Shown here: one piece after another, positions 15,001-21,000 of the stretch | Position numbering within the stretch: position 1 is the first letter of the stretch | Layout: every line of letters starts with the position of its first letter | From: Verrucomicrobiota bacterium | Lineage (GTDB): Bacteria; Verrucomicrobiota; Verrucomicrobiia; Limisphaerales; CANJXF01 | Length of the DNA: 64,000 nt | Assembly: GCA_038214755.1 (NCBI GenBank) | Contig: JBBQRQ010000014.1 | Location: 1 to 64,000 of the forward strand | Direction of reading: 5' to 3' | Position numbers: made by a program

Positions 15001-18000
15001 CGAAATTGCCGACCTGCCAACAAATGCTTCCAGTGTCTTTCAACACCTTGGCGCATTCGGCGATGACAGCTTTTTGCTGTTTTACATAACTTGCGAGGTC
15101 AAGTCGTTTTTCGTATTCCTTCCCGACATTGTAAGGCGGCGAAGTCACCACCAATTGCACGCTTTTGGGAGGAATCGTTTTAAGCAAATCAAGGCAGTTA
15201 CCGTGAAATACGACCGCTTTTTCTTTCGGGGAAAATGAATCTGAAATCTGAACGTCGTCTGACATCCACATAGTTTTACGAGTCGCGAACAAATTGGGCA
15301 ACGCTGAATCGAAAATTGAATTGGGAATCGCCCACTTGTCGTTCGTATTGCAAAAAATAAAACCCGCGACCGTTTCCGCTCGCGGATGTTGGTTACGAAA
15401 TTTTTTCCAGTTCATCCCGCCACCGCAATACTCGCCACATCGCTCCATTGGCCAACGTAGTCGTCGCCCTAGCGGGAGGCGATCCAACTGTCGAACTAAG
15501 CCACCGTTATTACATCGGCACGCGTGTAGGCGACAAATGGCTGTGCGTTGTGGTAAAGTATGCGGCAGAGGACGCCTTTGTTTTGACGGCGTATCTGACG
15601 GACAAACCCAAGAAAGGCGAACAATTATGGCCGATAAAGTAAAAGTTTGGTTCGATGCGGAAGGCGACTTCCTCGAAGTCCGCTTTTCCGAGGCAGCCGG
15701 TTACATGAAGGAAACGAATAACGACGCCGTGATGGAGCGCGTGGATGAAAACGGGCGCGTCATTGGTTTCTCCATTATGCAGGTGAGCCGACTGTCCAAA
15801 GAGAAACCGTTGGTAGCCGATCTTGTCTCAGCGTTCAACTGACCCAGCGAGGGGCGCAGGAAAACGATTATACCCGTCGTCCGGTTTCGTTCCATGGCCA
15901 AACTGATAATTCATTGCGCCACTTGCGAATCACACCAACTCCTTCACCTTCTTCACAATCGCTGCTGCGTCCAAACCGTATTTCGCCAGCAATTCTTCCG
16001 GCTTGCCGGAGCGCGGCAACTCGAACACCGCGAGTTTGTGGACTTTGATTCCGTCGGCGCTCAATTCACCCGCGACCGTGTCGCCCAAACCGCCTTCGGG
16101 ATAATGATCTTCCACGGTGAGAACGAGGTTGTTCGTTTTTTGCGCGGCGGCTTTGATCACCTCTTTCCCCAGCGGCTTCACGCTGTAGGCGTCGATGACC
16201 GTGATCGTGATTCCGTCCTTCGCCAAAATGTCAGCGGCTTTCAACGCTTCAAACAAAGTGACGCCAGCGGAAACGACCGTGAGTTTGTCGCCGGCGTTTT
16301 GTTTCAAAACTTTCGCGCCGCCGATGGGGAATTTTTCGTCGTTGCCGTAAATGACCGGCGTTTTCAGACGCGACGTGCGGAGATACGAAATGCCTTTGTG
16401 CTCCGCCATTTGTTCGAGACATTTTTCCGCGCAAACCGCATCGCTCGGATAAAGCACGATGCTGCCGGGCAACGCGCGCATCATGCCGAGGTCTTCCAGC
16501 GCCATTTGCGAACCGCCATCTTCGCCGATGCTCACGCCCGCCCAAATGTCTTCTCCTTGCTCTACATTATTTCCCTTCCAGTTGCGGCGCGGGTCGAGCA
16601 AGTTTTTTATTCATCGTCAGAATGGATTTAACGCTTTTGTTTCCTGCATCGATTTCAACCACCGTCGCTGAATCGACAATGATCTCTCCAGTTAATCCGC
16701 CTTCTTGGTCTTTCCCGCGCGTCTCATTATACCAAGTGAAAAGATAACGCGGAATCGTATGCGTTCCGATTTTAATAGGCTTTTTGATTTTTGGCTTCTT
16801 ATCAAAATAAAGTTGTTTTTCCGAATAGCCGAGTTTCTTGATGCTCCCGCGAGCCAATTGGATGGCCTCTCGTTCGCTCATGTTCCATGAGTTCCAATAA
16901 TCTTCCACCTGTCCATCGATCCTGCCGGAAAAGAACGCGTAAGGCGCGATAAATTGCGTGATGTAGCCTTCATTGTAAGAGAAGCGATACCCGCTGGTTA
17001 ATTTCACCGTTACTTCATCCTCGAAAGATTCGCCCTCAAAGCTCGTCACGTCATTCGTCGTTAAGGGAAGTTTGATGGGCAGCTTTAGCTTTTGAGCATA
17101 ATCAGAAACGAGAACCAACATGGCGGAAACCAAAGCCTGCTTGTTTTTGGGCGTGGCAGCAATTGGAGCAGGAAGTAATCTAAACTGTTTCTCCATTTCC
17201 GGGTTGCCCTTGATGAAATCTGGTATTTGTCCTATCGGAACAACTTTTGGTTCGACCCCAATCTTGGGCGGCTCCCGCCAAAGGTTGCTCGTCAAAAAAG
17301 TCATCGACTTCAATTTCTTTTTCGCGCCGTCAATTTCTATTTGAATGGCGGTGTCATCGGCGATTGGCTCAATCCATTCGATCCGGTAACGGGGAATAAC
17401 GTTGGTTCCATGCCGGGGTGCAATGGTGATTTTGGGATTGCCATCTGCATAGACCGCCGTTTCTTTATAGCCCAATTTTTTGATCGAAGCTCTGGCGAAG
17501 GCCACTGCTTCATCCTTGTTCATCTTCAGATTCCCGTAGAATTCAGGAATTCGATTCGGATCTTGCAAGGTGTAATAACTGTCGGGAGCTTCAAAGCCGC
17601 TCACAAAACCATGATCGTACCAGAACATATAACCGTTGGTCAGAAAAACGACGCCGCCAATCTCTCCCTTTCTTTGGTCGCAATTGAAACGGGAGACCTG
17701 CTGCATCGTGATCGGAATCGGCATCGGCAAATCAACTTTTTGGCTGAACTCCGAAATATGAGGCAAAATTGCCACTAAGACAGCATTGGAATATTGAGCC
17801 GTAACTTCGATAAATGAGAGCATGATTACGGATTGGTATTATAATCAAACCCGCGCAAACCACTGAAGCCGTAAATTTTTAAGCTCTCCCCCACATGTAA
17901 AGTGTTGGGTTCTGAGTTACGTTTCGCGGTATCATGGGCCGTAAACAAAGTGCGATTATTTAAACCCCACAATGCGAAGAAATTTATCCGGTAAGCCGGG

Positions 18001-21000
18001 AACTGCCACGGAATTTTATTCAAGACTGCGAAAGTTTTATAATCCGTCCAGCCCGAAAAAGCGGAGGGCCGCAAATTATTTTTAGAATATTCTTCGATCA
18101 ATACATTCTCCTTTTTCCTTATTCCAAAACTTAATGGCCAATCTCCGTTGGCTGTGTTGCACCCGTCTAAGAAAACGTAGCGGTAATGGTGCCGGTTGGT
18201 CGAGGTGCTCGTGATATTCAAGAATGCCGCAACTTCGGCGCTAGTGAGAAACCGAATTGCATTCGGCGATGACCCCAGTTTGCTTTTATTTCCGTGACCG
18301 AAATAATAAAAATTACGAGCTTGATAGGTCTGCAACGCCCACTTGAGTTGCGTCCATCCCCAAGTCTGATTCGTATAGGAAACGATATTGGTGTCGTAAA
18401 GGCCGCCAAAATAATTGCCGGGATAATTCGGATTGGGGTTGATATTTCCACCGAGAACGGATGCCATTCGAAAAGCAGAAAGCACCTGGTTTTGCATATT
18501 CGGTTGTTCCGACTGGTTCTTAAAATCCTCATTTTTAAAAGCAAAGACATTTTGAAAGGCAACTACCCATCCGCCAACGGAGGGGAAGTTATCGGTGACT
18601 TTGAACTTGGGAGGATTGACTTTTATTTTTGAGCCTCCCTGGAACGTCGTCGTTGTGACCGAGTAAAAAACCGGGCTTGCGTTGGTGTGTCCTTGGCCGT
18701 CTGTTCCATCCCAAACCACTTCGATTTTTCCATCAGTCGTGTGATTGGTGAAACTTCCCAAATAGCTGAACTGATCATCATAAATGTCGATTTGCCAATC
18801 CACATCCAAATGATCTGACGAAACATTGAGCGATAAGGATCCTTCCCCGAAATTATCTACCCATTCGGGAAAGGAGATTTCGTTGAATATGTTTACTTCT
18901 ATCGAGGGACTGTCGGCCTGATACAGCGAAATAAGGGCCTCTGTTTCGTCTTCTTCGTTGGTCGATAAATTCCAGGTCGCCTGTGCTTGGAGCGCATTTA
19001 CGCCATTGTTCAAACGAGTCGTATCGATCGTAAAAACTAAATTTGTAAAAGGAGGCAAGAATGTATTGACACCAGGAATACTTGTTCCGTTTGCACTGAG
19101 AGTAACACTTTGCAATTTTCCTCCGTCGTTACCAACTTCGATTTGGATGGTAACGGTATTTGATAAAGCCATTCCATTCGTGATGGCAAATAACTGAACG
19201 CCATTTCTGACCACGCGATAAAATGCGGAGCAAGAACTGCCGTCGCCATCAGAGTCTTCAGGAGTTGGATTATCCAACTCGCTGTTCGAGGAACTGGATT
19301 TGTCATGTTTTGTTGAATTATTGGCAACCCACGTCGAGGTATCCCATGGGAGTGGCGGCAGCGGTGGCAACGGCGGAAATGAATCCTCTTTGCTCGATTG
19401 CGAGGATGAGGAAAAACCGGGCGAAGGCGGTCCGCCTTCACTGCCTCCTGAACTATTGGTGACGCCAGCCGGAACACAAGCGGCACCCGTGTGAACAAAA
19501 GTCGTAACGTTTGTTCCATCCAATGCCGGATAAAAATTAGTCAAGGTTTGCCAGGCATCATTCGTACCGATACTCGCGCGGCTTTGAATAATAAACGTCT
19601 CGCCGCTGGTTGGATCACTCGGCCAAGATAGAACCACGTTGCTGCTCTGAATAGATAAGGTCAGCCCTTCAATCGCGAATGTTTGTACAGCCGAGACAAC
19701 CATTATCGCAACGACAACGACGATTCTTTTGATGGTGATTTTCATATTGTGATTTCTATTTTCCCCGCTGGACTCCCGTCGCGGTTTTAATTGTTGGTTA
19801 TTGTTTCATCAACGCAATGGAAATGAGTGCTTTGTTTTTAGGTCAGCGGCGCGACTCGTTCCACTTCATAATGGCCAACAACTACCTTTAGATAGTGTGC
19901 GTGTCAATCACCGAAATTCACTCTGTGATGCGTGCAAGAATCGGCTGCAACGAGATTCCAGAAACGACTGCAAGAACTGCGTCGAAGTCGCGGCTGGACG
20001 CAGGAAAAAGCTGCCGAGTTTTGCGGCGTCGGCTATAAACTATATCAGCTTTATGAACTCGGGATTAAGGTGAATCCTGGACTTCTCACCCTTGAAAAAA
20101 TTGCCTCTGGATATGAGTTGGACATTTCCGAACTTCTCGCTCCGACCTTCATCGAGAGGACAAGGATGGCAAAAGCCCCGCAAGGTTCGCAGAGCGAGCA
20201 AATGCGAAAGAAGAGAAATCAAAAGCGGTAAAATCCTTCCGGGGGCCGAAGAGCCGTTTTAGAATTAAACCAACTCTTTCACCTTCTTCACAATCGCCGC
20301 CGCGTCCAGACCGTATTTCGCCAGCAATTCTTCCGGCTTGCCGGAGCGCGGCAACTCGAACACCGCGAGTTTGTGGACTTTGATTCCGTCGCCGCTCAGT
20401 TCGCCCGCGACCGTGTCGCCCAAACCGCCTTCGGGATAATGATCTTCCACGGTAAGAACGAGGTTGTTCGTTTTTTGCGCGGCGGCTTTGATCACGTCTT
20501 TTGCCAACGGCTTCACGCTGTAGGCGTCGATGACCGTGATCGTGATTCCGTCCTTCGCCAAAATGTCGGCGGCTTTCAACGCTTCAAACAAAGTGACGCC
20601 AGCGGAAACGACCGTGAGTTTGTCGCCGGCGTTTTGTTTCAAAACTTTCGCGCCGCCGATGGGGAATTTTTCGTCGTTGCCGTAAATGACCGGCGTTTTC
20701 GGACGCGACGTGCGGAGATACGAAATGCCTTTGTGCTCCGCCATTTGTTCGAGACATTTTTCAGCGCAGACCGCGTCGCTCGGATAGAACACGATGCTTC
20801 CGGGCAACGCGCGCATCATGCCGAGATCTTCCAGCGCCATTTGCGAGCCGCCATCTTCGCCGATGCTCACGCCAACATGCGAGCCAACCATTTTGACGTT
20901 CGCGTGAGAAATCGCGCCCATGCGAATCTGGTCGTGCGCGCGGGAGAAAAACGCAGCGAACGTGGAAGCGAACGGAATTTTTTTCAACGCGGCAAAACCA

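Follow-up and report, generated by a model that had tools for sequence, protein, structure and literature searches.

How can a block of accessory DNA come to lie between an intact housekeeping gene and a second copy of that gene's end when the block carries no recombinase? The question is raised by the transketolase gene (tkt) in the window, by which we mean the whole 64,000-nucleotide stretch of a Verrucomicrobiota contig that was analyzed. Self-BLASTN of the genome reveals an ungapped direct repeat of 612 bp, at positions 15927-16538 and 20262-20873, whose copies are 96.08% identical and 3723 bp apart. The repeat duplicates the 3′ end of tkt and encloses 3.7 kb of low-GC cargo without a recombinase, just as a preliminary description of the locus had reported. 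The locus consists of the following features.

13701-15842, no strand: accessory DNA behind the tkt fragment, GC 0.43-0.48 (composition)
13701-14312, minus strand: BglII-like endonuclease, behind the tkt fragment (Pfam)
14309-15487, minus strand: N6/N4 methylase, behind the tkt fragment (Pfam)
15294-15842, plus strand: DUF2283 ORF, behind the tkt fragment (Pfam)
15927-16538, minus strand: repeat copy 1, a displaced 3′ fragment of tkt, 5′-truncated (aa 412-614), with an open frame and a TGA stop of its own
16539-20261, no strand: tkt cargo, 3723 bp, no mobility gene (composition, Pfam, PADLOC, NCBIfam)
16567-17823, minus strand: 418-aa ORF without a family, its two halves similar to each other (translation)
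17826-19745, minus strand: 639-aa secreted-looking protein with a signal-like N-terminus and an Ig-like region (translation; weak Pfam match to Big_7)
19932-20231, plus strand: XRE-type HTH regulator, 99 aa, convergent with tkt (Pfam HTH_3, E 1e-9)
20262-20873, minus strand: repeat copy 2, the 3′ end of intact tkt (final 609 nt plus 3 nt), adjoining the cargo
20265-22109, minus strand: intact transketolase gene, 614 aa (Pfam Transketolase_N, Transket_pyr and Transketolase_C; NCBIfam transketolase equivalog, E 1e-263)

Orthologues of the intact gene in congeners share 88-94% amino acid identity with it. The two copies of the gene end differ at 24 of 609 nucleotides, 16 of them at codon position 3, with five amino acid changes and no internal stop. 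Their stop codons also differ (TGA in the fragment, TAA in the intact gene), and the homology ceases 3 nt beyond the stop codon.

The cargo has a GC content of 0.46, versus 0.53 genome-wide, and self-BLAST against the rest of the genome gave no match to it. Its HTH regulator shows sub-cut-off matches to RstR-like and control-protein models in PADLOC and NCBIfam. The top Atlas match of the 639-aa protein, a "Bacterial Ig/DUF6345" cluster found mainly in Verrucomicrobiota (score 0.95), is best taken as a lead only. The 418-aa ORF, whose stop codon is 28 nt away from the inner junction, matches nothing in Pfam, PADLOC or NCBIfam, and its Atlas matches all score below 0.85. A search for synteny between the accessory DNA behind the fragment and the tkt neighborhoods of relatives found none.

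Duplicated gene ends across the genome

The phenomenon is real and frequent in this genome, and the kind of event is already known. Using repeat pairs from the genome self-BLASTN and genes from our own crude gene caller, we counted as a 3′-end case any pair whose two copies each finish no more than 22 nt from a stop. Eleven such pairs were found, involving tkt, ilvD, a molybdopterin oxidoreductase gene, thrS, a parE/gyrB-like gene, VWA, MFS, L-PSP, an SSF transporter gene, thiC and a small-ORF pair on contig C41. Four further pairs are 5′-end cases (Band_7, pepF, serS and an aminotransferase gene on C139). The preliminary observation is confirmed.

The coordinates given previously also reappear, both for the 3′-end type (ilvD C26:19506-24981, ydeP-like C44:20003-23361, thrS C42:19792-28587, parE C15:44567-50765, VWA C36:23580-24687, MFS C10:65456-66706, L-PSP C7:3396-5025) and for the 5′-end type (Band_7 C25:8510-10280, pepF C73:6985-9874, serS C41:12118-14263), and the distances from repeat end to stop codon match those listed earlier. 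The sulfatase pair (C1:42346-43844) likewise holds, although the gene caller missed its fragment and the pair is therefore classed as mixed.

All 11 of the 3′-end cases have the order intact gene, cargo, 5′-truncated fragment, and the 5′-end cases are arranged in mirror image. In the self-BLASTN set, the repeats measure 154-612 bp and the inserts 0.7-5.8 kb. Among nearby repeats in the genome, direct ones outnumber inverted ones by 68 to 13. The association with stop codons exceeds chance: the 35 repeat pairs that fall in called genes on one strand include 12 whose end is no more than 30 nt from the stop of the long gene, compared with 3.7 expected, and none of 200,000 simulations reached 12.

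That the inserts consist of accessory genes is correct in part, but the inserts of the MFS, SSF and serS islands are largely pieces of other chromosomal genes. A 5′ piece of argJ and a 5′ piece of another gene lie at cargo ends. The donor pieces would thus end arbitrarily. In six or seven of the 11 islands, however, a complete terminal gene is found no more than about 125 nt from the far end of the cargo, which is tidier than expected of random ends.

Two genes, thrS and ilvD, hold more remnants than were listed before. Those of ilvD are 512, 122-135 and 54 bp long. The thrS fragments begin at thrS nt 1209, 1498, 1675 and 1788, that is, at four different inner ends.

Decay could explain part of the inner-end variation in the thrS and ilvD remnants.

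Repeat boundaries in related species

Simple homologous capture had been held to leave the coincidence of repeat ends with stop codons unexplained. This objection does not stand, since alignments between this genome and congeners stop there too. Alignments of tkt to the same-genus genomes G001, G005, G007 and G008 stop within 2 nt of the gene end, as do those of ydeP to relatives in five of five cases, and different genes lie downstream of tkt in G001, G005 and G007. The repeats end at the stop codon because the DNA past it is not conserved, and so is non-homologous, between lineages.

At ilvD, a relative keeps the neighborhood of the fragment directly behind the intact gene. The homologue of C26:19128-18923 lies 252 nt behind ilvD in G003; in our genome this segment lies 378 nt behind the ilvD fragment, not behind intact ilvD. 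For tkt, no empty site, donor genome or circular form was found: relatives are non-syntenic downstream, and scans of genome and metagenome collections for the cargo or the tkt end gave no match.

A proposed route of insertion

We lean toward the view that a fragment of chromosome from a congener, with a gene end on it, was recircularized and then entered by one homologous crossover (Campbell-type insertion-duplication). Each island would then mark a place where roughly 0.9-6.4 kb from the chromosome of a related species was inserted without an integrase, anchored by homology. The piece at tkt would have started 609 nt inside the donor's tkt and run through the stop codon into the donor's downstream DNA, which is now the 3.7-kb cargo. 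This linear piece may have been trimmed and then recircularized, possibly by Ku, which is encoded here. Host homologous recombination, presumably through RecA, would have made one crossover between the donor gene end and resident tkt. The outcome would be a complete chimeric gene, the cargo, a 5′-truncated second gene end and the old downstream DNA. Repeated events at one gene, as at thrS and ilvD, would stack older, decaying remnants farther downstream and leave gene ends that are mosaic between species.

Several features expected of such integration are seen. The insert lies between direct repeats of one segment, with one copy completing the gene and the other truncated; no recombinase is encoded by the element; and one copy appears to derive from incoming DNA, given that both branches show a position-3 excess and that the copies are equally distant from congeners. 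The preliminary description likewise proposed a single crossover of circular molecules with a gene-end fragment from a related strain, and the foreign allele, the variable, motif-less inner ends and the precedent in the portion of PMC3240628 considered here speak for it, but a linear variant fits equally. Its further statement that the gene is regenerated every time goes too far: this is a filter of survival and visibility, not a property demonstrated for the mechanism. An insertion that broke an essential gene would be lost, and what is left to see are duplicated 3′ ends, or 5′ ends with the upstream region. Against Campbell-type integration stand the tidy far cargo ends noted above, and recombination at 83% identity with exact runs of only 23-29 nt (parE, L-PSP) would be inefficient for RecA.

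The linear variant is a one-ended event, which we regard as possible but doubtful. A donor strand or broken chromosome end would recombine upstream in the gene, copying or carrying the gene end and cargo, and its far end would be joined illegitimately, by microhomology or Ku-dependent end joining, at an inner point of the resident gene. No circle would be involved and the fragment would be wholly native; the event would be a duplication-producing variant of homology-facilitated illegitimate recombination (HFIR) or of break repair on a foreign template. HFIR, as summarized in PMC3240628, combines one homologous anchor with one illegitimate joint, brings in about 1 kb of foreign DNA and occurs in naturally transformable bacteria.

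The final structure would be identical to that left by Campbell integration. Derived sites of the two copies are intermixed (runs tests, made without a native reference allele, P 0.996, 0.065 and 0.61), so the position of a crossover is not visible and does not separate Campbell integration from a linear event. The genome encodes ComEC and two DprA genes, which suit uptake of linear single strands, as well as Ku. Cargo ends cut other genes in at least two islands, and the divergent tract of thrS between species begins near, not exactly at, the inner ends of the fragments, which also fits a linear event. However, the HFIR products covered in the consulted part of PMC3240628 delete recipient DNA instead of duplicating it, and where both outcomes were scored there HFIR was the rare one (4 of 60). 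Rejoining within the homologous region is also topologically awkward.

Absence of a recombinase and of a fixed site

The islands had been described as integrase-free, and our searches agree. No Phage_integrase, Resolvase, Recombinase or transposase family was detected in 128 ORFs in and around the islands, apart from one rve IS that is located outside the C73 array. Genome-wide, six-frame searches reading past stop codons found five tyrosine-recombinase loci (PF00589) and one serine-recombinase locus (PF00239), none of them in any island. A common motif or conserved core at the inner repeat ends was sought and none was found, and six of 10 pairs have their first mismatch 2-9 nt from the inner repeat end. 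There is no fixed att site; inner ends are variable, even within one gene.

These results make it unlikely that the islands are decayed site-specific elements, that is, elements that targeted 3′ ends, carried a replacement gene end and then lost their integrase or were mobilized in trans in the manner of CIMEs. In CIMEs, att sites are kept and the integrase is lost. Decayed elements would also predict a repeat from crossover point to stop codon, an element-borne copy kept under purifying selection, and accretion in tandem, and two cargos are rich in restriction-modification or toxin-antitoxin genes. But some 15 islands lack an integrase or integrase remnant, at least 11 different target genes stand against at most three non-Xer-like tyrosine recombinases in the genome, thrS alone has its four inner ends without a conserved core, and some cargo is merely pieces of ordinary chromosomal genes. 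In addition, usual att sites are far shorter than the repeats here, at 170-610 bp for the latter.

Two alleles of different lineages

Over 10 repeat pairs, 221 of 320 differences between copies fall at codon position 3, and in tkt, ilvD and ydeP the branch-specific changes are mostly at this position on both branches. The copies of ilvD are 88.8% identical to each other, versus 89.9% and 89.2% to congener G003, and those of ydeP are 91.0% identical, versus 91.4% and 91.2% to G007. Both copies of tkt have 93.1% identity to G007. On sequence grounds, then, each repeat is one foreign allele and one native allele, with a signature of purifying selection on both copies.

This bears on the idea that a long target duplication arose in situ at insertion, perhaps where widely staggered breaks were filled in, as hypothesized for restriction-modification genes, and that the copies then diverged. 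A published class is alike in having long, variable direct repeats over start or stop codons and no mobility genes, according to the part of PMC2853133 used here. Restriction-modification genes adjoin the tkt fragment and lie within the island of thiC, a gene cut through by the contig end; this is the only island to hold a methylase with a control-type HTH, and most cargos are not of this kind. In-situ duplication further predicts copies that were initially identical and neutral decay of the fragment, whereas changes on both branches are dominated by position 3 and the two copies resemble each other no more than they resemble other species. We consider it quite improbable.

Physical reality of the junctions

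The genome is a metagenome-assembled genome of 175 contigs without Ns, and the preliminary description worried that strain variants had been joined. All three tkt junctions are each bridged by 78 nt in independent k=31 contigs (Logan) from run X1, and in this run the depth of the cargo (25) equals that of the flanks (22.8 and 22.9). In the parE, L-PSP, thrS, thiC and VWA pairs, exact shared runs are no longer than 23-42 nt, too short to collapse at a usual final k, and other assemblies of the genus contain thrS remnants like those here. An artefact, whether from joining co-occurring strains or species or from threading in a small circle through shared k-mers, is accordingly the least credible explanation, even given the many contigs, the exact runs of up to 132 nt in the tkt repeat and the Logan contigs that merge the middle of this repeat into mixed sequence, since a junction of a cargo end with an inner gene point requires real molecules.

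For tkt taken alone, the unphased contigs are compatible with an integrated island or with a chromosome plus a 4.3-kb circle.

Comparison with known systems

Phage 21 and e14 at icd and tRNA-targeting islands are site-specific elements with a replacement gene end. Such elements produce a repeat from the crossover point to the gene end, restore the gene and can accrete in tandem, and they need an integrase and a fixed core. Our islands differ in having neither an integrase or its remnant at one end nor a fixed inner end, and in having many targets.

Insertion with long target duplication was reportedly described by Nobusato et al. in 2000. The portion of PMC2853133 (Furuta, Abe and Kobayashi 2010) considered here describes blocks of less than 20 kb that lack an integrase or transposase and lie between long, variable direct repeats of 30 to more than 400 bp. 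Many of these repeats cover a start or stop codon, which leaves the target gene whole, and cases come from several phyla, mainly from naturally competent species. The class was defined on restriction-modification genes, whose DNA-breaking activity was held responsible for it, and the repeat was taken to be a duplicate of the target itself. The islands share its variable direct repeats of more than 30 bp, its inserts under 20 kb and its lack of mobility genes. To that extent, the novelty claimed in the preliminary description was overstated, since long duplications over start and stop codons without mobility genes appear in this account. By contrast, the copies here are distinct alleles of different lineages, not the recipient's own target twice; the tkt cargo is an HTH regulator and two non-enzymatic-looking ORFs, not a restriction-modification insert; and at least 15 loci, with nested remnants, occur in one genome.

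HFIR differs in that, as PMC3240628 summarizes it, recipient DNA of a size similar to the insert is deleted, while here recipient DNA is duplicated. A close precedent is the Campbell case within the same paper (Amarir-Bouhram et al. 2011). In the E. coli experiments that its consulted part covers, 56 of 60 recombinants had duplications of the homologous end, and the 14 sequenced duplications were 109-950 bp long. The authors' reading is a single crossover of a degraded, recircularized molecule; duplication length varies because the incoming DNA was degraded and recircularized before the crossover. Both cases have a direct duplication of one homologous segment around the insert and no site-specific enzyme. 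The experiments were laboratory ones, with a plasmid introduced by conjugation and identical homology, whereas our case is natural, donor and recipient differ by 1-17%, and the circle and crossover are what we infer. What is new here is that the two copies are shown as different alleles, together with the integrase-free islands, the variable inner ends without a motif, the explanation of the stop-codon boundary and the ilvD neighborhood.

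Duplicated gene ends across the genome

The genome is a 5.1-Mb metagenome-assembled genome in 175 contigs, with a GC content of 52.7% and no Ns. We compared it with itself using BLASTN, keeping pairs of at least 150 bp and at least 80% identity that lie 300-15000 bp apart, and found 68 direct and 13 inverted repeat pairs. With genes called by a purpose-built codon-usage gene caller, both copies end at most 22 nt from a stop codon in 11 pairs, each of which matches a long gene with a short truncated ORF. A sulfatase pair is also a valid 3′-end case, whose fragment was missed by the gene caller. 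Four further pairs duplicate a gene start and 41-60 nt upstream of it (Band_7, pepF, serS and an aminotransferase on contig C139). Pfam confirms the identities of ilvD, a molybdopterin oxidoreductase (hereafter ydeP-like), thrS, a gyrB/parE-type topoisomerase subunit, VWA, MFS, an SSF transporter, sulfatase, L-PSP and thiC.

The chance test was restricted to the 35 pairs that fall within called genes on one strand. Twelve of these end at most 30 nt from the stop codon of the long gene, compared with 3.7 expected, and 0 of 200,000 simulations reached 12. The self-BLASTN pairs and this excess bear out the preliminary description, which had reported accessory genes enclosed between an intact gene and a truncated copy of its end, and the distances that it listed between repeat end and stop codon match those recomputed here. 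We refer to such enclosed cargo as an island, to the truncated copy as the fragment, and to the limits of the repeat within the gene and near its stop codon (or upstream of its start) as the inner and outer ends.

Intergenic repeat families of 120-200 bp, with copies on many contigs, occur inside some cargos (C36:24332-24505, C103:12702-12826 and C73:7601-7804), and one such repeat immediately follows the VWA stop codon. These families may represent MITE-like elements or elements associated with terminators. We rejected them as the agent of insertion, given that repeats of ~120-200 bp are found in the VWA, SSF and pepF cargos and are absent from those of tkt, ilvD, ydeP-like and L-PSP.

The tkt island

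The island in the window is bounded by a direct, ungapped repeat of 612 bp and 96.08% identity (15927-16538 and 20262-20873), whose homology ceases 3 nt past the stop codon. Following tkt in its reading direction, one passes from the intact gene into 3723 bp of cargo with a GC content of 0.46, then into the tkt fragment and then into further low-GC accessory DNA.

20265-22109, minus strand: intact transketolase gene tkt, 614 aa; its 3′ end is the right repeat copy
15927-16538: tkt fragment and left repeat copy, aa 412-614, 5′-truncated, with its own stop codon
Cargo ORF: XRE-type regulator
Cargo ORF: secreted-looking protein of 639 aa; its first Atlas match is a DUF6345/Ig cluster, a lead only
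Cargo ORF: protein of 418 aa with two halves that resemble each other
13701-15842: second low-GC block directly behind the fragment, with a BglII-like endonuclease and an N6/N4 methylase (a restriction-modification pair) and a DUF2283 ORF

Family searches of the three cargo ORFs gave no match to a mobility or defence family. We rejected the cargo as a defence system, as PADLOC gave no match for the two large ORFs. No relative of the 639-aa protein that might reveal a donor or cargo context was found in genome_contigs and metagenome_contigs, and a degenerate 38-nt pattern of the tkt end had 0 matches in metagenome_contigs. Rfam searches around the tkt and ilvD arrays yielded nothing at E-values up to 0.1. 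No empty tkt site was found in the relatives, whose DNA downstream of tkt is unrelated; the HEAT/cytochrome gene that lies downstream of the island in the window sits on other contigs in them.

One low-depth contig (5.5 versus ~23) links 13215 to 15321, which would delete the restriction-modification pair, but its shorter side is only 21 nt and the link is weak. Elsewhere in the window, tandem or internal repeats unrelated to the islands occur at 1262-2876, 3400-4310 and 28735-29566, with units of ~260-770 bp and 80-97% identity.

Stop-codon boundaries and the origin of the cargo

An objection raised in the preliminary description was that simple homologous capture leaves the stop-codon ends of the repeats unexplained. 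Comparison with congeners answers it. Alignments of tkt to four related genomes (G001, G005, G007 and G008) end at most 2 nt from the end of the gene, as do those of the ydeP-like gene in 5/5 relatives, and in G001, G005 and G007 tkt is followed by different genes. Thus, the repeats end at the stop codon because homology between lineages ends with the coding sequence. In one case, aspS on C126, the repeat continues 221 nt beyond the stop.

At the end of the SSF insert is a copy, 277 bp long, of a 5′ stretch of argJ, a gene whose resident copy is on another contig, and at the end of the MFS insert are the first 151 nt of a different gene together with its upstream region. Judging by such sequences, some cargo is simply the neighbouring DNA of the donor. 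Polarity can be read at ilvD. In the related genome G003, a homologue of C26:19128-18923 sits 252 nt behind ilvD. In our genome this segment sits 378 nt behind the ilvD fragment, and what lies behind the intact ilvD is an insert of 4.45 kb with a gene for an Ig-repeat protein of 1281 aa. The G003 arrangement therefore suggests that the fragment retains the ancestral neighbourhood, as expected of a displaced native end.

In 6-7 of 11 islands, a complete terminal gene and the far end of the cargo are no more than ~125 nt apart; the distance is 28 nt in tkt, and 0 and 6 nt in two layers at thrS. This is tidier than random ends predict. Retro-insertion of a 5′-truncated operon transcript would explain tidy 3′ cargo ends. 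We rejected it, since cargo and target are convergent in the parE island (5 genes), the sulfatase island and others.

Circular or linear incoming DNA

The islands fit an insertion that is anchored by homology at one gene end and uses no site-specific enzyme. We lean, by a modest degree, towards a circle that enters by a single (Campbell-type) crossover: incoming DNA would be partly degraded and recircularised, and would then recombine once at the gene end, which would account for the variable inner ends. A linear, one-ended variant, with homologous invasion upstream and illegitimate joining of the far end at the inner point, is a less likely route to the same structure. The two routes differ in whether the fragment is a mosaic of donor and native sequence; runs tests, which had no native reference allele, gave no mosaic signal for a crossover inside the repeats and favour neither route. 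The genome has genes for Ku and ComEC and two for DprA (of 14 control genomes, just 1 has Ku), so that both DNA uptake and end joining are plausible in this bacterium on the basis of its predicted genes.

60050-60868 of the window, minus strand: ComEC-type competence channel gene
C15:62621-63166: Ku gene, ~12 kb from the parE island

Recombinases and attachment sites

The islands could instead be site-specific elements that have decayed, and the genome does contain five tyrosine-recombinase loci and one serine-recombinase locus in six-frame family searches that read through stop codons. None of these loci is on C14, the contig that makes up the window, or within any island. Among 128 ORFs in and around the islands, no integrase, resolvase or recombinase family was found; a single rve-type transposase is located beyond the pepF array. 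No fewer than 11 different genes serve as targets. The inner ends also vary within a target: the thrS locus has at least six thrS pieces, including an inverted 915-bp copy 18 kb away, with inner ends at thrS nt 1209, 1498, 1675 and 1788, and the nested ilvD remnants measure 512, 122-135 and 54 bp. When the inner and outer junctions of 11 islands were inspected by eye, neither a shared motif nor a hairpin or perfect core was seen. Counting from the inner end, the first mismatch comes after 2-9 nt in 6 of 10 pairs. This anatomy fits islands that lack a fixed attachment site and would need no site-specific enzyme, and we consider decayed elements improbable.

The copies as alleles of different lineages

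Over ten pairs, 221 of 320 differences between the copies fall at third codon positions (P ~1e-38 against one third). The tkt copies differ at 24 positions, 16 of them third positions, with 5 amino-acid changes and an intact frame. When differences were polarised with congeners, third positions dominated on both branches, the intact-gene end and the fragment, for tkt, ilvD and the ydeP-like gene.

Identity of the copies to each other and to a congener, and third-position changes on each branch
tkt: copy to copy 96.1%; copies to G007 93.1/93.1%; intact branch 8/10, fragment branch 5/10
ilvD: copy to copy 88.8%; copies to G003 89.9/89.2%; intact branch 20/31, fragment branch 18/22
ydeP-like: copy to copy 91.0%; copies to G007 91.4/91.2%; intact branch 17/20, fragment branch 20/26

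By these comparisons, the copies are no nearer to each other than are other species of the genus. Given the third-position excess and this congener-level distance, each fragment gathered nearly all of its divergence within a working gene. In-situ duplication of a long target, followed by decay, would yield the same arrangement of copies, but it is very unlikely because the divergence of the fragments accumulated under coding constraint of that kind. As far as sequence can tell, one copy stems from a different lineage within the genus, and the insertions are recent.

Physical reality of the islands

We used independent Logan contigs from the only public run found to contain the stretch, which is probably the source sample. 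These contigs bridge the three tkt junctions by 78 nt each (from downstream DNA into the fragment, from there into the cargo, and from the cargo to the tkt stop), and depth is 25 in the cargo compared with 22.8 and 22.9 in the two flanks. The middle of the tkt repeat is collapsed, so its copies are unphased; together with exact runs of up to 132 nt, this means that, for tkt alone, an integrated island is not formally separated from a chromosome plus a 4.3-kb circle. No Logan contig skips the cargo, but such contigs drop rare variants and are hence uninformative on this point. In the parE, L-PSP, thrS, thiC and VWA pairs, exact shared runs are only 23-42 nt, too short to mislead a de Bruijn assembler, and thrS-end remnants are present in other assemblies of the genus. 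In view of these runs and remnants, the bridged junctions and the even depth, an assembly artefact is scarcely credible.

Possible gene-end cassettes and thrS

A bolder and rather doubtful extension is that the islands are self-perpetuating "homology-addressed cassettes" that circulate in the genus and re-enter the same gene through host recombination alone. Far from being one-time scars, cargo and gene-end tag would leave together as a circle when the flanking repeats recombine, pass from one species of the genus to another and insert again with only the host RecA. If so, the ends of tkt, ilvD, thrS and other core genes would be standing docking sites, and the cassettes would drive mosaic 3′ ends and even the splitting of essential genes.

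The hints for circulation come from ilvD and thrS. A non-coding-looking 220-bp segment (C26:18667-18886) is 95% identical to positions 1207-1426 of L049, a stretch of contig C328 of the related genome G004, compared with ~81% for the ilvD ends, and a short ilvD-end remnant follows directly behind it in both genomes. The segment has no Rfam match; it could be a functional element under conservation, or else a cassette that the two species shared recently. The thrS ends are mosaic and strewn with remnants, which are stacked behind thrS in our genome, G002 and G005. We compared the C-terminal part of our thrS (on C42) with those of G005, G007, G001 and G006. Identity to G005 and G007 is 66-76% in the last ~300 nt, which encode the anticodon-binding domain, and 95-99% in the preceding 600 nt. 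The halves of thrS are discordant, with N- and C-terminal identities of 92.7% and 87.8% for G005, and 86.1% and 92.2% for G007. This pattern would fit repeated replacement of the gene end.

In three congeners, thrS is split (L070, G001:C42, 5213-12272; L071, G007:C144, 2-6694; and L072, G004:C333). The editing half (aa ~37-340) is one ORF, and the catalytic and anticodon-binding half (aa 389-705), which has a start of its own, is another, at a distance of 2.9-5.2 kb; no further thrS match was found in these three assemblies. Between the halves lie unrelated genes, for pilin-like DUF1559 proteins in G001, and for a Kelch/NHL protein and an AbiU2-like HEPN protein in G007. The gene is contiguous in our genome (C42:18295-20415), G005 and G008, with a linker at nt ~950-1162 that is unalignable between species. 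A naturally split essential synthetase may have been created here at an insertion hotspot. In our genome, the first layer of thrS cargo (C42:20444-23088) encodes a TIR-domain protein of the CAP12/Pycsar type, a PIN toxin pair and an addiction pair of the Gp49/HI1420 type, which together make up a small cluster of defence and toxin-antitoxin genes.

Significance and relation to known systems

About 15 loci in one genome document gene gain without a mobile-element enzyme, which helps to account for the many gene-gain hotspots beside core genes that have no recognisable mobile element. The scars keep the displaced native allele beside the imported one. With both alleles preserved, one can read directly how far the donor had diverged (1-17%, congeneric), how long the piece was (0.9-6.4 kb) and in which order events took place. 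Side effects are mosaic 3′ ends in essential genes and piled-up pseudogene fragments, which mislead annotation and checks of binning. Island finders that look for integrases will overlook such islands.

In the nearest published experiment (Amarir-Bouhram et al. 2011, PMC3240628), DNA with one homologous end was introduced into E. coli, and 56 of 60 recombinants duplicated part of that end. The 14 sequenced duplications span 109-950 bp. The authors explain them by partial degradation and recircularisation of the molecule, followed by one crossover; homology-facilitated illegitimate recombination (HFIR), whose products carry a deletion instead of a duplication, contributed only 4 of 60. These duplications match the Campbell-type model, including its variable inner ends. 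This match, the allelic nature of the copies and the lack of a recombinase indicate that the Campbell-type interpretation in the preliminary description is largely right, one step short of proof.

Its claim of novelty went too far, since both these duplications and a related class of insertions were already published. Building on Nobusato et al. 2000, Furuta, Abe and Kobayashi (2010, PMC2853133) described "insertion with long target duplication", in which direct repeats of variable and considerable length enclose restriction-modification genes and mobility genes are absent. A few keyword searches in open-access articles found no account of such insertion as a general, multi-locus route of island gain. 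Our islands share the anatomy of the restriction-modification class. Unlike that class, they carry ordinary cargo, their copies are distinct alleles, and they occupy ~15 loci with nested layers in one genome. The principle is not new; the value of these islands lies in their scale, in the allele evidence and in extending the restriction-modification class to ordinary cargo.
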